DNA from: an uncultured euryarchaeote
Lineage (GTDB): Archaea; Thermoplasmatota; Poseidoniia; Poseidoniales; Poseidoniaceae
DNA length: 34,744 nucleotides
Assembly (NCBI GenBank): GCA_964012565.1
Contig: CAXGTB010000001.1
Span: forward strand, 1-34,744
Reading direction: 5' to 3'
Position numbers and translations under genes: made by a program. Each line of letters begins with the position of its first letter. Position 1 is the stretch's first letter. The notes below the pieces were generated by a model. It was not told the origin of the DNA and did not search any database. It was given only the letters and a program-made list of their open reading frames with translations. Below, piece by piece: positions 2,990 to 7,380 of this stretch.

Positions 2990-3118
2990 ATGGGACTTTC
3001 CTGTGTTAGATTAAATAACAAGTTTATTCGTAAGCGAATTGTGAACCGCAAGGCGATACTCCTTACTGCCCTGATGCTATTGGTTTCAGCAAGCCCATTT
3101 GTAACCCCATCTTCTGCT
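2990..3118 (+). other. Predicted Sec signal peptide of the surface protein (aa 1-43)
   Basis: Lys/Arg-rich n-region, hydrophobic h-region ILLTALMLLVSA and an SSA-N candidate cleavage site. Confidence 0.55.
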
Positions 3119-6100
3119 AATGAAATAGAAGAAATCGAGGTCTTGCAAACTGTAGTTAATCCAAGTAACAACCATACCTACCATCTTCTTTCAGCATCAT
3201 CTTGGAGTGATGCTGCTTCTGTTGCTAGGAGTCTGGGTGGTTTTTTGGTAACAATTGATGATGCTAGTGAAGACGATTGGATATTCGATACTTTTGCAGT
3301 CGATAACGACACAACTCGACATTTATGGATTGGACTATCCGATCATCAAGATGAAGGAGATTTCAGATGGCATGACGGAACACCATTTACCTACAGAAAC
3401 TGGGGTGAAGGCCAACCTGGCGATGGAGATGATGAAGACTATGTTCATATCACTGGAACCAATATGGGTTCTATTGAACCAGCCACATGGAATGACCTAG
3501 AAGATGACCCACAGTACTTCCCAGTATACGGAGTTGTAGAAATTGGAGAGGGGGCAGATTACGCCCTAAGATTTGATGGTGATGACGACCACATCATTAT
3601 CGATGAAGAAATGCCTGATTGGAACGGAGAAATCGAAATAGAAGCGTGGGTAAATCTCGCTGAAACTGAAGGAATCCAGTTCATAACAATGTACGGTGAC
3701 TATGGATGGGGACTTTACCTAAACGACGGATACTTAGCATATTCAAACGAATATTCACTGTCAAGAAACCCTACATCTAACATATCTGTTCAACAAGGAG
3801 TTTGGACTCATGTGAAAGTGGTTGTCAACACCGAAAACGGTGGTGAATTTTTCATAGATAACCAATCAGCAGGAATGATTGACGTCAACAAATCTCAAAT
3901 TCCAAGTGGAGACTTTGGATCGAATGATTGCTTCCAATCCGGTGAAGAATGCGACGAATTGTACATTGGAAGAATGGGTGCAGGATGCGATTGCAACTAT
4001 TTCTATGGTTTGCTGGACGATGTAAGAATTGGAAATTCGAATAATGAATCAATATGGATGTTTACTGAAGGAGAAGGTGACATCACTGAAGATTCTCAAG
4101 GTTTGATGGGAGATATTCATGGAGCAGCATGGGTAATGCCTGATGGTACCATTATCGCCCAAGCAATAGAACTTGAAAATGGAGAATACTACTTTGACAT
4201 AAGTTCTAACGCTGGCGATACTCTGCTGTTTTTCATGGAGATTCCAGAAAATACTCAATATGTGACATTCTCAATGTATTCATATGACTACGGATATGAA
4301 GAGGATTACTATGAAGAACCAGAATATGAGATTTACATATCACAGGATGAAATCCCTTCCGCATGGGATCACGATTATGAAATCGAAACATATTACGGAT
4401 TGTATGTCTATGAATTCATCGAATGGCCAGAAGAAGGTGTTTATTGGATTACAGTCTCTTCAAATTATGATATTGGTGAGCTAGAGGTTAGTGCATATTG
4501 GGAAGAAGCACCAGAACCTCCCGAACTCGATGAGATGACAGAACTAAATGATGGAATTGCTATTACTAACCAAAGAATTCCAAGAAATAGTGGGGATCCT
4601 TTGTACTTCTATGTTGATTTAGAAGAAGAACTTGCAGAGTTAAGAGTCAATACATATGGAGGTCGTGGTGACTGCGAGTTACACATCGCCCTTGGTTCCC
4701 TACCATACATCGATGACTGGGGATGGTTAGAAGATGAATTCTTGATGGAAGGAAAATCTACCGAAGGCAGGCAACTTGGAGGCCAAGATGTTTCTGACCA
4801 CTCATACGGACCTGGTAACGATGAAAATGTACAAATTTTTGATGCACAACCAGGAATATATTATGTTATGATGACTACTTATAATCAATGCAGAGACGTC
4901 ACAATAAAGGCTGAATTCACATATAGTCCTGGAAATGTTGATCCTGAATCAGCAATTGAATTAACTGACGGAATTACCTATGGTCCACTAAGTGGGTTTG
5001 AAGGTTTAGATCAATACTTCTACATCGATGTACCTGTGGACACAGAAAGATTGGAAGTTGACTTGAGTAATGGTGATGGAGAAGCTAAACTGATGATGCG
5101 TCTAGAGCAATACCCTACTTGGACTACATATGACGAACATTCTAATGCACCTGGTGCAGGAGATAAGATTGGTTTCAACGACCCAACACCTGGAAGATGG
5201 TACATACTGCTTGGTAGTGAAGAATACTACAGTCGCATCGATATTACTGCATCTTTTGAGGACAGATATGTCTGGAGTTATGATGGTGAGCCAATTCAAT
5301 TATTCAACGATGAAGAAATTGGAGGAATTAGTGCTCCTGAAGGTGAAGAGTTGTACTTCTTTATCGACTTAGATGATTCATCTGCAATGGATTTGTCAAT
5401 AAAAACGTGGGGAGGTTCTGGGGACCTTGCGTTGTTTGCAGAAATCGAAGAAATCGACTGGGAGGACTTTGATGACGGACCAGGAGGAAGGCAATTTGGT
5501 GGAACAGAATTTGAATCGAATTCTGGTGAATCGAATGAAGAAATAAACATCTTTTTGGTCACAGGAAGAATTGACATCACAATTTATCCATATGCGGATA
5601 TTGATGAAATTACAATTCTCGCAACATGGGAAGAAATGGATATTCCTGGGCCAGATCCAGGACCAGATCCCCGACCAGATCCTCCAATAGGTGAAGAGAT
5701 TCTAACTTGCGATGAATACTCTGATTTCATCTTTGAGGACATGGATATGAATCAAGACGGAGATATCTCGAAAGATGAAATCATGTTTGAGGAAGATGAT
5801 GAATTCGAGGAATTTGACCGGAACAAAGACGGGGTTATTGACAAATCAGAACTCAAAACTCTCGCCTGCACATGTGAAAATGAGCTATACATTACGATTG
5901 AACAAATCTCGATGGATAATTGGGGATATAGCATTGAATATCTTGGCTCTATAGCTTGGAAAAACGAATACAATTTCTTCGAAATGGACTCAAACAATGA
6001 CATGGAACTCGATTATGAAGAAATAGAAGAGTACGCAGAAAATTGTGAAACAACGTATAATCCATTTGATAGAGATGGTGATGGCACTCCTGATGATAAG

Positions 6101-6454
6101 GACGCATTCCCTGATGATCCGGATGAAGATACCGATACAGACGGTGATGGAATTGGAGACAATGCAGATATCATCGCATCGGTTGATAATGACATAATCT
6201 GGGTTTCAGCAAGTGTTCTAGGAATTATCTTGGTTACTGTTCTTGGAATTCTCTTTGTTAGAGCACGTAGAGGTCCTGAATATGCTTGGGAAGAGTATCA
6301 GAAGGACAACATGTCTGAAGCAATGTTAGGTCAGATGTCAAATCCTGTCCAATCGCCACAGACCAACGTTCAAAACGTGCCACCAGCTCTAGATTTAGGA
6401 CCACCTGTAGAAAATGTACCTGAAGACATGACTGTATCAGATCTTTACGACTGA
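2990..6454 (+). CDS. Secreted, membrane-anchored mosaic surface/adhesion protein (C-type lectin + LamG + 4x PPC + EF-hands + TSP3 repeats + C-terminal TM helix)
   Basis: 1154-codon ORF. The N-terminus has a basic n-region plus hydrophobic core (KFIRKRIVNRKAILLTALMLLVSASPFVTPSSA). Domain motifs are listed as separate features. The composition is highly acidic, typical of Ca-binding extracellular proteins. Confidence 0.85.
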   Translation: MGLSCVRLNNKFIRKRIVNRKAILLTALMLLVSASPFVTPSSANEIEEIEVLQTVVNPSNNHTYHLLSASSWSDAASVARSLGGFLVTIDDASEDDWIFDTFAVDNDTTRHLWIGLSDHQDEGDFRWHDGTPFTYRNWGEGQPGDGDDEDYVHITGTNMGSIEPATWNDLEDDPQYFPVYGVVEIGEGADYALRFDGDDDHIIIDEEMPDWNGEIEIEAWVNLAETEGIQFITMYGDYGWGLYLNDGYLAYSNEYSLSRNPTSNISVQQGVWTHVKVVVNTENGGEFFIDNQSAGMIDVNKSQIPSGDFGSNDCFQSGEECDELYIGRMGAGCDCNYFYGLLDDVRIGNSNNESIWMFTEGEGDITEDSQGLMGDIHGAAWVMPDGTIIAQAIELENGEYYFDISSNAGDTLLFFMEIPENTQYVTFSMYSYDYGYEEDYYEEPEYEIYISQDEIPSAWDHDYEIETYYGLYVYEFIEWPEEGVYWITVSSNYDIGELEVSAYWEEAPEPPELDEMTELNDGIAITNQRIPRNSGDPLYFYVDLEEELAELRVNTYGGRGDCELHIALGSLPYIDDWGWLEDEFLMEGKSTEGRQLGGQDVSDHSYGPGNDENVQIFDAQPGIYYVMMTTYNQCRDVTIKAEFTYSPGNVDPESAIELTDGITYGPLSGFEGLDQYFYIDVPVDTERLEVDLSNGDGEAKLMMRLEQYPTWTTYDEHSNAPGAGDKIGFNDPTPGRWYILLGSEEYYSRIDITASFEDRYVWSYDGEPIQLFNDEEIGGISAPEGEELYFFIDLDDSSAMDLSIKTWGGSGDLALFAEIEEIDWEDFDDGPGGRQFGGTEFESNSGESNEEINIFLVTGRIDITIYPYADIDEITILATWEEMDIPGPDPGPDPRPDPPIGEEILTCDEYSDFIFEDMDMNQDGDISKDEIMFEEDDEFEEFDRNKDGVIDKSELKTLACTCENELYITIEQISMDNWGYSIEYLGSIAWKNEYNFFEMDSNNDMELDYEEIEEYAENCETTYNPFDRDGDGTPDDKDAFPDDPDEDTDTDGDGIGDNADIIASVDNDIIWVSASVLGIILVTVLGILFVRARRGPEYAWEEYQKDNMSEAMLGQMSNPVQSPQTNVQNVPPALDLGPPVENVPEDMTVSDLYD
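3152..3544 (+). other. C-type lectin-like domain (CTLD), cysteine-free variant
   Basis: WIGL motif (HLWIGLSD), FRWHDGTPFTYRNWGEGQPGDG (position of the QPD/EPN Ca/sugar loop), EDYVHI in place of EDCV, and WND (ATWNDLEDD). Confidence 0.65.
3551..4039 (+). other. LamG / concanavalin-A-like lectin domain
   Basis: ALRFDGDDDHIII ... IEAWVNL ... VWTHVKVVV ... LYIGR ... FYGLLDDVRIGN. This is the classic Laminin_G_3 pattern (ALxFDG..D.v ... W.hv ... G.iDevRi). Confidence 0.65.
4151..5635 (+). other. Four tandem pre-peptidase C-terminal (PPC)-like beta-sandwich domains
   Basis: A pattern recurs four times: acidic/aromatic strand, then l.v.l.g..GD.dL, then G.YYi.v. Examples: LYFYVDLEEELAELRVNTYGGRGDCELHIA...PGIYYVMMTTY; QYFYIDVPVDTERLEVDLSNGDGEAKLMM...PGRWYILLGS; LYFFIDLDDSSAMDLSIKTWGGSGDLALFA. 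The first copy is more divergent (YYFDISSNAGDTLLFFMEI...GVYWITVSS). Confidence 0.6.
5645..5686 (+). repeat. Imperfect tandem 12-nt repeat (ccagatccNNNa x3) encoding a PGPDPGPDPRPDPP linker
   Basis: Read directly: cct ggg cca gat cca gga cca gat ccc cga cca gat cct cca. Confidence 0.8.
5738..6169 (+). other. Ca-binding stalk: 2-3 EF-hand loops followed by thrombospondin type-3-like Asp-rich repeats
   Basis: Canonical EF loops DMNQDGDISKDE and DRNKDGVIDKSE, plus a degenerate DSNNDMELDYEE. TSP3-like stretch DRDGDGTPDDKDAFPDDPDEDTDTDGDGIGDNAD. Confidence 0.7.
6191..6259 (+). other. C-terminal transmembrane helix of the surface protein, followed by RARRG and a 64-aa tail
   Basis: IIWVSASVLGIILVTVLGILFV, then RARRG (positive-inside stop-transfer). 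The tail is Pro/Gln/Asn-rich and ends in DLYD. Confidence 0.75.
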
Positions 6455-7380
6455 TTGCGTTTCTTTCCAGGTGAAAGGCCCAAAGGCCGCATAAGAGATA
6501 GCACATGACGGTGCATTTGTGGTAGCATTTCAAACAATACTAGAGCAAGTAGGAACATTGCACCTAGAGAAACAAATCGTGCAGCATATGCATGTCCAAA
6601 TTCAAAAATTGACAAACCCATCCATCTCCAATCTGGATAACCCATCTGGAGCCAAATTAAGCCAGCATTTCTGAATAAATTCAGTATATGAATCAATGAT
6701 AATGCGATGAATAATGCCCTAACACGCTTTCTCCAATCCATTTCTAAGACAGATATTGCTCCGACGAAGATAATCATCGATTGAATAGCCGTACACGCTA
6801 AAACAAAGTTGATGTAGATTGGTTCTCCATTAACAAGCAATTCTGTGTGGAATGCGAATTCTGACATCTCCTCGCTGAGAAACCACTTATTTCCATCCCA
6901 AGTTTCCCAATTAACCGAAGGGCCATTCGAGGGGTTGACATAGGTGTCTCCAAGGGTCACATTCGCCCCACCTGCAAATGAAAGGAAGGCTGCAGATTGC
7001 CAAGCTACAAACCATATCGCTAGGACATTCAATATTGGAACATGAGCGATTAGAAGGTATGGCAAACCTGCTACTGCTACCGATCCTCTAAACCATCTTA
7101 ATGCACTAGCGTTTTTCTCTTCACTAACTCTCTTTTCCCAAAATGCAATCGCCACTGAACCAGGTAGTGTCAATCCACTCATCAAAACTAATACCCAATC
7201 ATCATGACTGAGGTAGAAACCAATGTCATTGAAGAAATAAAATCCTGTAAGTATCCAACCCACAGGAGCAATGGATTCAAATTTTCCAGTTCGACTTTTC
7301 CAGGCAAGAAAAAGTATTGACATTCCAATTGCACCAAGTATGGTGGCAATTGTTCTGTCAACCAAATAGTCGCCTGCCAT
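6445..7380 (-). CDS. Exosortase/archaeosortase-family membrane transpeptidase (ArtA-like)
   Basis: 311-aa polytopic membrane protein. It carries the family's ordered Cys / Arg / His signature: LACTAIQSM (compare exosortase ACSGxRS), ILNLFRNAGLIWL (N..R) and FEFGHAYAARF (His). A large extracytoplasmic loop precedes the Cys. The 3' end overlaps the adhesin gene by 10 bp (convergent). Confidence 0.55.
   Translation of the reverse strand: MAGDYLVDRTIATILGAIGMSILFLAWKSRTGKFESIAPVGWILTGFYFFNDIGFYLSHDDWVLVLMSGLTLPGSVAIAFWEKRVSEEKNASALRWFRGSVAVAGLPYLLIAHVPILNVLAIWFVAWQSAAFLSFAGGANVTLGDTYVNPSNGPSVNWETWDGNKWFLSEEMSEFAFHTELLVNGEPIYINFVLACTAIQSMIIFVGAISVLEMDWRKRVRALFIALSLIHILNLFRNAGLIWLQMGYPDWRWMGLSIFEFGHAYAARFVSLGAMFLLALVLFEMLPQMHRHVLSLMRPLGLSPGKKRNQS

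Follow-up and report, generated by a model that had tools for sequence, protein, structure and literature searches.

Large bacterial adhesins that are stiffened by Ca2+ and end in a ligand-binding tip, such as Marinomonas MpIBP and the LapA-type RTX adhesins, are attachment proteins. For the archaea of Marine Group II (MGII), attachment to particles or phytoplankton has, to our knowledge, so far been inferred only from archaella and from generic "adhesion domains." Here, we analyzed a stretch of 34,744 nucleotides from an uncultured euryarchaeote (GenBank assembly GCA_964012565.1, contig CAXGTB010000001.1, positions 1–34,744, forward strand), referred to below as the window, in which an open reading frame (ORF) of 1154 codons plus stop at 2990–6454 (+) encodes a predicted surface protein. 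We consider it fairly probable that this is a type-I membrane protein of MGII in which a Ca2+-stiffened stalk presents a conserved head, composed of a C-type lectin-like domain (CTLD) and a LamG domain, for the binding of a ligand or glycan. The likeness to the MpIBP- and LapA-type adhesins lies in a long spacer of repeated β-sandwiches, Ca2+ dependence in seawater, and distal sugar- or peptide-binding modules; no homology is claimed. The window protein is far smaller, has no RTX repeats, and carries an archaeal C-terminal transmembrane (TM) anchor instead of a type I secretion system (T1SS) retention module.

Residues are numbered throughout from the ATG at position 2990. Residues 50–186 (3137–3547, +) form a cysteine-free CTLD with WIGL, QPG, EDY, and WND motifs, to which the Pfam family Lectin_C (PF00059) matched at 46.3 bits in the whole protein (residues 69–169) and at 50.8 bits in the isolated segment, against a gathering cutoff of 22.6. 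Sequence matches in the PDB were to Mincle, DC-SIGN, CEL-I, and the CTLDs of the mannose receptor. The adjoining LamG/ConA-like domain (residues 187–372; 3548–4105, +) contains four invariant cysteines (314, 321, 333, and 335) and was recognized by Laminin_G_3 (PF13385) with 31.8 bits in the whole protein (residues 196–347) and 39.2 bits in the segment, the cutoff being 27.6. We modeled the head separately (residues 44–372) with AlphaFold2 (AF2) and a wider alignment, at a mean pLDDT of 78.7. Foldseek matched this model to the carbohydrate-recognition domains (CRDs) of Mincle, SIGN-R1, DC-SIGN, Endo180, the mannose receptor, CEL-I, and SP-A, with target-normalized TM-scores of 0.62–0.79 at 20–26% identity; in the model, the domain has the CTLD fold. 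The LamG half matched the pentraxin PTX3, agrin LG, and neurexin LNS (0.45–0.67 on the same scale), as well as BACOVA_03559, a carbohydrate-binding protein of Bacteroides. Both domains had been proposed in an earlier sequence-only reading of the window. The Pfam searches placed Lectin_C, Laminin_G_3, PPC, and EF-hand families above threshold and TSP_3 below it, and the three domains on which that reading had been staked, CTLD, LamG, and PPC, were all recovered.

The CTLD lacks cysteines in all 36 homologs of our family alignment, and the canonical disulfides C1–C4 and C2–C3 are therefore missing. This is compatible with membership of the Pfam family, because a large prokaryotic subgroup is also cysteine-free. 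An exhaustive search with the head against 1.84 billion representatives gave 16,592 matches at E ≤ 1e-3. Among the best 139 representatives with a near-complete CTLD, 61 were cysteine-free, shared 42–50% identity with the window domain, and typically held two to four tandem copies with EPN or QPD motifs; another 58 were cysteine-rich and mannose-receptor-like, at 30–35% identity. Some of the cysteine-free representatives have PEP-CTERM-like ends or pentapeptide repeats, which suggests that they are prokaryotic. The combination of CTLD and LamG in one stretch occurred only in proteins of 1133–1279 aa, the members of the family itself, and in apparent fragments of 156–566 aa. When the CTLD alone was used as the query, the matches were mostly fragments of the family, together with a 199-aa protein at 47% identity that has an EPN motif and a PEP-CTERM end and another protein at 38%.

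Because the identity to the cysteine-free CTLDs exceeds that to the metazoan ones, the domain appears to belong to a common prokaryotic type for which a metazoan connection is not needed, and we disfavor a metazoan origin. Like the prokaryotic cysteine-free CTLDs, the window domain is without disulfide cysteines and follows the pattern H.Y.LL..SW..A...A...GG.L(V/A)TI.D..E..W...LWIGL.D...EG.F.W..G.P..Y.NW..G(E/Q)P......ED(Y/F)....WND....YGVVE. It differs in that most of them keep EPN or QPD, whereas QP in the window family precedes a residue that varies; moreover, they usually form tandem arrays or small proteins, and none of those inspected showed the order CTLD, LamG, four PPC units, EF-hand domain, and TM helix. 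With the animal CRDs (DC-SIGN, SIGN-R1, Mincle, mannose receptor, and CEL-I), the window domain shares the fold in the model, the WIGL and WND motifs, a Gln/Glu-Pro pair at the EPN/QPD position, and a Glu where those domains have the "EDC" glutamate. However, it has none of their two or three disulfides, the third residue of its triplet is not Asn or Asp, the hairpin before WND is 9 residues longer, and the identity is lower than that to the prokaryotic type. LamG, PPC, and EF-hand domains and DxDxDG repeats are routine components of the other surface proteins of this genome. Taken with the cysteine-free CTLD and its closer prokaryotic relatives, this speaks against the earlier description of the domain combination as metazoan-matrix-like.

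In the CTLD, WIGL and WND are invariant across the 36 homologs, as are Q142, P143, N168, and D169, and Glu-149, which stands at the position of the Ca2+-ligand glutamate, is nearly so, with Tyr or Phe replacing the cysteine of "EDC." With four of the five canonical ligands of site 2 retained, Ca2+-dependent sugar binding is possible but not assured. We then compared the modules by their identity to the 16 most distant homologs. The CTLD is the most conserved (69%), followed by the juxtamembrane Asp loops (67%), the third PPC unit (62%), LamG (58%), the other three PPC units (43%), the EF-hand domain (35%), the TM helix (24%), and the cytoplasmic tail (21%). A conserved tip on a looser spacer fits what would be expected if a stalked protein bound a conserved ligand outside the cell, and the pattern would argue against a hypervariable or immune-evasion role. 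As the most conserved module, the CTLD was also rejected as the target of a diversity-generating retroelement.

Behind the head, the protein continues with four PPC-like β-sandwiches, all on the forward strand: P1 (residues 373–508; 4106–4513), P2 (residues 509–648; 4514–4933), P3 (residues 649–760; 4934–5269), and P4 (residues 761–884; 5270–5641). Only P3, the best conserved of the four, exceeded the Pfam PPC (PF04151) cutoff of 25.9, with 27.4 bits in the whole protein (residues 675–741) and 33.4 bits in the segment; P2 remained sub-threshold at 16.3 bits (E = 0.019), and in the segment scan P1 and P4 had no direct PPC match. Profile-profile comparison by hhalign, using segments taken from the 36-sequence family alignment, related all six pairs with probabilities of 93–98.7% and E values of 1e-7 to 1e-16 (P1 versus the other three, 93–98%, with P4 at 98.0%; P2 versus P3, 97.6%; P2 versus P4, 98.7%), whereas control comparisons with the LamG or CTLD blocks stayed below 0.5%. 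AF2 predicted all four units as confident β-sandwiches, and Foldseek with the full model found the tandem of PPC-type collagen-binding domains s3a–s3b of ColG (5iku, E = 3.9e-7). The pairwise homology, the AF2 model, and the Foldseek match together make "four PPC-like modules," as the sequence-only reading had it, a fair description. The likeness to the Ca2+-dependent collagen-binding domains of ColG and ColH consists of the tandem PPC β-sandwiches, the Pfam match of P3, and the 5iku match; the window protein differs in having four PPC copies, three of them too diverged for the Pfam model, and no peptidase domain in either Pfam or NCBIfam, the latter returning nothing significant for the protein.

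The remainder of the stalk is rich in candidate Ca2+-binding elements. A Pro/Asp-rich linker, PGPDPGPDPRPDPP (5642–5689, +), can be read directly in the sequence, as noted before; it measures 11–17 aa among the homologs and is modeled with low pLDDT. It leads into an EF-hand domain (residues 901–1022; 5690–6055, +) with three loops at residues 919–930, 943–954, and 1000–1011, where two or three had been anticipated, and with a helix-loop-helix pattern in the AF2 model. EF-hand_5 scored 26.2 bits in the whole protein (cutoff 25.9) and 38.6 bits in the segment, and two further models exceeded their cutoffs in the segment scan, EF-hand_1 with 34.1 bits over three stretches and EF-hand_6 with 31.8 bits. 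Loop positions 1, 3, 5, and 12 are D, N/D, D/N, and E in all 36 homologs bar rare substitutions, namely one Ser at position 5 of loop 1, and in loop 2 one Gly at position 1 and one Leu and one Ser at position 3; loop 3 has no Gly at position 6. Cysteines 907, 960, 962, and 1019, all of them invariant, probably brace this extracellular domain. Next to the membrane lie two Asp-rich DxDxDGxxDxxD loops (6056–6187, +) with invariant Asp and Gly columns between residues 1027 and 1060. This segment aligned with the last repeats and TM helix of a TSP3-bearing surface protein of the same genome at 42% identity (E = 1.9e-7). Judging by their ligand residues, the EF-hand and Asp loops would bind Ca2+.

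The extent of the coding sequence needed revision at its 5′ end. The frame at 2990–6454 is open throughout, in keeping with the 1154-aa ORF originally proposed, and many homologs in the family alignment start at the column of Val-18, which is a GTG at position 3041. Two orthologs from the same genus (L006 and L007) carry a TAG, in frame, between the equivalent of ATG 2990 and this GTG, and more distant orthologs have an ATG at the column aligned with GTG 3041. We therefore rejected the ATG at 2990; the first 17 codons are probably untranslated, and the most likely coding sequence spans 3041–6454 (+) and yields 1137 aa. A TATA-like box, TTAAATAA (3011–3018, +), read directly about 27 nt upstream of the GTG, is a candidate promoter element. 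The DNA string TTAAATAACAAG upstream of the GTG is kept in the same-genus loci L004–L008, even where the TAG breaks the frame, and conservation of this box as DNA accounts for the apparent conservation of an "RLNNK" peptide in the N-terminal extension. The product has an isoelectric point of 4.05, with Asp and Glu making up 22% of its residues, and two hydrophobic segments (residues 21–41 and 1067–1095). Of its 11 cysteines, none falls between residues 6 and 313.

Both hydrophobic segments have a predicted role. The likely 1137-aa product begins MNRKAILLTALMLLVSASPFVTPSSA|NE and would carry a Sec-type signal peptide, MNRK-AILLTALMLLVSA-SPFVTPSSA (3041–3118, +), whose n-, h-, and c-region anatomy is typical and whose hydrophobic core (residues 21–41) coincides with an AF2 helix at residues 20–38. 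Small residues at −3 and −1 (S-x-A) are kept across the 36 homologs from several genera, suggesting cleavage after Ala-43 and before Asn-44. At the other end, a single helix (residues 1067–1091; 6188–6262, +), followed by the basic stretch RARRG, is apparent from a hydropathy maximum of 2.69 and from an AF2 helix at residues 1067–1092. Thus, the signal peptide and TM anchor suggested earlier both find backing in these predictions, and a type-I topology with a cytoplasmic tail is the likely arrangement. The tail itself (6263–6451, +) is present, as claimed, with a length of 63 rather than 64 aa.

The tail belongs to a short form shared by the clade of the window protein (20 of the 36 sequences), which ends in DL[YF]D, and it contains W1100, SEAML, and a terminal DLYD. 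The motifs W1100, SExML, and DL[FY]D recur across genera. The query-aligned part of the tail is 47 to 118 aa long, and 12 of the 16 distant orthologs (within P0072–P0121) extend 40–50 aa further and end in a conserved terminal module of some 45 aa, PPxxLMGM..DG.E.IE[WY]P..SG..W.R....W, which the window protein lacks. No Pfam family matched the tail of the window protein. The terminal module had no Pfam match at E ≤ 10, WW included, and its identification as a WW domain is not supported. We also rejected the C-terminal DLYD as a proteasome-docking HbYX motif, given that DL[FY]D is internal in other genera, with some 45 residues after it. Two other surface proteins of the same genome, on contigs C201 (+, 840-aa frame) and C38 (−, 253-aa frame), have ends resembling the 45-aa module. 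More broadly, at least 10 large type-I proteins of this genome (on contigs C19, C35, C36, C37, C38, C76, C145, C201, and others) combine Asp-rich DxDxDG/TSP3 arrays, one C-terminal TM helix, and tails of 24–132 aa, and many have an acidic-flanked Trp shortly after the basic stop-transfer sequence (YAWEE, DDWVSE, KDWNAG, SVWDGDD, and GDDWMNE). As far as these frames tell, Asp repeats followed by a TM helix and a tail are this organism's customary way of anchoring surface proteins in the membrane.

These features suggest how the protein might work. Its mRNA would be leaderless or have a short leader, with transcription starting near GTG 3041; the Sec signal peptide would be removed after Ala-43; and the single C-terminal helix would anchor the protein with the short tail in the cytoplasm, leaving an ectodomain of about 1020 residues as stalk and binding head. 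Close to the membrane, the two Asp loops and the three-loop, disulfide-braced EF-hand domain would bind Ca2+ from seawater. Beyond a Pro/Asp hinge, the four PPC β-sandwiches would serve as a spacer and may bind protein or polymer in the manner of the ColG collagen-binding domains. At the tip, LamG and the cysteine-free CTLD would recognize a conserved ligand; a glycan displayed by particles, algal exopolymers, or other cells is the most likely one. A role in attachment is plausible, and adhesion or ligand binding, for which the sequence-only reading had put the protein forward, appears the most reasonable interpretation of a predicted secreted, type-I-anchored, acidic protein with several Ca2+-binding elements and a lectin-type head. 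The literature is in line with this, reporting multiple adhesion domains in MGII genomes and an enrichment of proteins with Ca2+-dependent adhesin domains in particle fractions (PMC4511931; PMC6461757).

Several observations weigh against so specific a picture. Across the family, the QPx triplet varies in its last residue (G, S, V, D, T, or A), which is a Ca2+ and sugar ligand in canonical CRDs; this makes classical Ca2+-dependent monosaccharide binding uncertain, and many CTLDs bind ligands other than sugars. In the full-length AF2 model, the long-loop region of the CTLD (residues 115–176) has low confidence, and the head-only model is moderately confident. The whole-protein pTM of 0.33 means that the extended geometry of the stalk is assumed and not modeled; structure prediction, proposed earlier as a check, yielded confident individual domains, with Foldseek support for the CTLD, LamG, and PPC folds. 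The claim of thrombospondin type-3 repeats survives only in the form of the two invariant DxDxDGxxDxxD motifs: TSP_3 (PF02412) scored 7.3 bits (E = 5.1) on the segment, below threshold, and in genome-wide scans with TSP_3 and TSP3_bac (PF18884) the gene had no match at E ≤ 1, while other genes reached 47.2 and 32.2 bits, respectively.

We next considered the distribution of the gene. Homologs are full length, share 45–92% identity, and come from most genera of one family (the source names are Euryarchaeota, Poseidoniaceae, and Thalassarchaeaceae), with orthologs at 33–37% in two more divergent genera. Among 301 genomes of the order, full-length matches were confined to genera g1–g7 and g12 of the window's family; in its genera g9–g11, as in the two other families, the matches were weak and at module level only. 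A survey of PF00059 in 401 genomes of the phylum located it in 55 of the 58 sampled from the window's family and in 1 of the sister family's 36, and some 50 further families, with about 300 genomes between them, had none; the statement that CTLDs are rare in archaea therefore holds for this phylum. Archaellin was present in all 10 sampled genera of the window's family versus 5 of 13 in the large sister family, the pattern that Rinke et al. (PMC6461757) report for Poseidoniaceae versus Thalassarchaeaceae. The host is therefore probably a member of Marine Group II (Poseidoniales), family Poseidoniaceae (MGIIa). The gene is single-copy in its own assembly (87% complete) and encodes the sole CTLD of that genome (Lectin_C, 50.6 bits on the genome frame). 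In genus g2, five genomes (G003, G012, G016, G028, and G044) have an additional small, stand-alone Lectin_C ORF of 106–193 aa at another locus.

The gene neighbors are archaeal, including TiaS, a diphthamide synthase, and the proteasome α subunit, with the C-terminal region of an Lhr-type helicase upstream. The order Lhr, target gene, orf311 (ArtA), HAD, TiaS, and, further along, ADSL, Dph6, and PsmA is kept in five genomes from several genera, and within it the target gene diverges faster (32–57% identity) than Lhr (67–84%). Judged from these comparisons, the gene is vertically inherited with its frame intact throughout. The Lhr-type frame (1–2943, +) comprises the C-terminal 980 residues of the helicase, with an AlkZ-like domain at 34.2 bits, and is syntenic in all three families of the order at 54–84% identity. 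Short fragments of the target gene (P0134, P0153, P0166, P0175, and P0177) occur on contigs of 0.24–1.36 Mb, and P0166 equals P0075 until a frameshift intervenes; either assembly indels or occasional pseudogenization in some populations would account for such fragments.

Immediately downstream, orf311 (6445–7380, −) is convergent with the target gene, the 3′ ends overlapping by 10 bp, and encodes a genuine archaeosortase A (NCBIfam TIGR04125, 87.1 bits; cutoff 75). This adjacency, kept in every genome that has the gene, brings to mind the ArtA/PGF-CTERM system of Haloferax volcanii, with its S-layer glycoprotein, and the window protein is likewise a C-terminally anchored archaeal surface protein. 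It differs in having no PGF-CTERM signal: the genome-wide search with TIGR04126 did not match it, no PGF motif is present, and 63 residues follow the TM helix. Two other proteins of the same genome, encoded on separate contigs, carry PGF-CTERM-like ends (...PGFGGILATISMLAAAFLLPRRDD and similar): the ORF at 3–677 of L014 finishes with NMPGFGGILATISMLAAAFLLPRRDD, and an ORF of L015 with GGLPSLGMFATIVAMLGAALLLRRD, in which the motif takes the variant form PSLG. Elsewhere, Lhr and ArtA are immediate neighbors, tail to tail and with no gene between them; this holds for three genera in the sister family, a genome of the third family, and one genus within the window's own. The presence of ArtA beside Lhr where the target is absent suggests that the adjacency reflects insertion next to an ancestral ArtA, or else deletion, and provides no evidence of a functional pair. 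In one genus (genome G092), the same gap holds a second large gene directly downstream of the lectin gene (L011, 11587–16221), whose product of 1544 aa has an SBBP β-propeller repeat and a TSP_3 match of 43.9 bits; the Lhr/ArtA gap seems to collect surface-protein genes.

Four other explanations were weighed against a stalked, lectin-tipped attachment protein. That the protein is a dedicated substrate of the adjacent archaeosortase, via a non-canonical C-terminal signal, is extremely improbable: the convergent arrangement and constant adjacency invite the idea, but the empty Lhr/ArtA sites, the lack of a TIGR04126 match, the 63-aa tail in place of the few basic residues expected after the helix, and the canonical-looking substrates elsewhere in the genome led us to reject such a pair. 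It is doubtful, with a small chance of being right, that the protein is instead a structural, S-layer-associated component of the envelope, its head binding the cell's own surface glycans to organize the envelope or hold cells together. The strong conservation of the head would suit a self ligand equally, the ArtA neighbor recalls S-layer processing, and the gene is core, syntenic, and single-copy. Yet the sister families and one genus of its own family lack it and have an empty site, which indicates that it is not an essential envelope part of the order; it is without PGF-CTERM, unlike other proteins of the genome, and its ectodomain of about 1020 residues offers just six N-glycosylation sequons, two of them conserved. 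The same points, together with an ArtA and PGF-CTERM-type proteins that represent the usual S-layer route elsewhere in the genome, leave unsupported the suggestion in the sequence-only reading that this may be the major cell-surface determinant.

The PPC modules raise another alternative, in which they hold insoluble protein or polymer for extracellular protein degradation and the head is secondary; this, too, we regard as unlikely. PPC is by definition a C-terminal domain of secreted peptidases (Pfam PF04151), P3 is better conserved than its neighbors (62% versus 43%), the ColG s3a–s3b match points the same way, and MGII are described as protein degraders (PMC6336850). However, a peptidase domain is missing, P1, P2, and P4 rank with the least conserved regions of the protein, as expected for spacers, and it is the head that is the most conserved module. 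A signaling or endocytosis-like receptor, which would relay binding at the head through the TM helix to cytoplasmic partners by way of the tail motifs, is very unlikely. The recurrence of W1100, SExML, and DL[FY]D across genera and the conserved terminal module in 12 of the 16 distant orthologs would fit it, whereas the tail is the least conserved part, variable in length and without a Pfam match, the window protein lacks the terminal module, and no partner gene is linked in the conserved neighborhood. In a bolder version, which we consider quite unlikely, the protein would be the archaeal counterpart of eukaryotic type-I lectin receptors, glycan binding by the head being coupled inward through the W-acidic, SExML, and DL[FY]D motifs and, elsewhere, also through the 45-aa module. 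If this were true, gain of the gene in part of MGIIa would have contributed to the ecological divergence of MGIIa, associated with particles or blooms, from the free-living MGIIb.

The attachment protein favored here is uncharacterized yet ordinary, a member of the class of Ca2+-stiffened, lectin-tipped prokaryotic surface proteins. The MGII genomic and transcriptomic papers that were searched contained no description of it and only generic mentions of adhesion or thrombospondin genes, with "lectin" unmatched where it was searched. The protein is neither animal-like nor a new kind of system, its modules being common currency of marine prokaryotic surface proteins, and it is of interest chiefly because its hosts are abundant and unculturable. 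For MGII, the gene provides a concrete, conserved, single-copy candidate for attachment with a defined binding head, and its presence in the majority of genera of one family, set against the empty site of the sister families, offers a testable link to niche differences.

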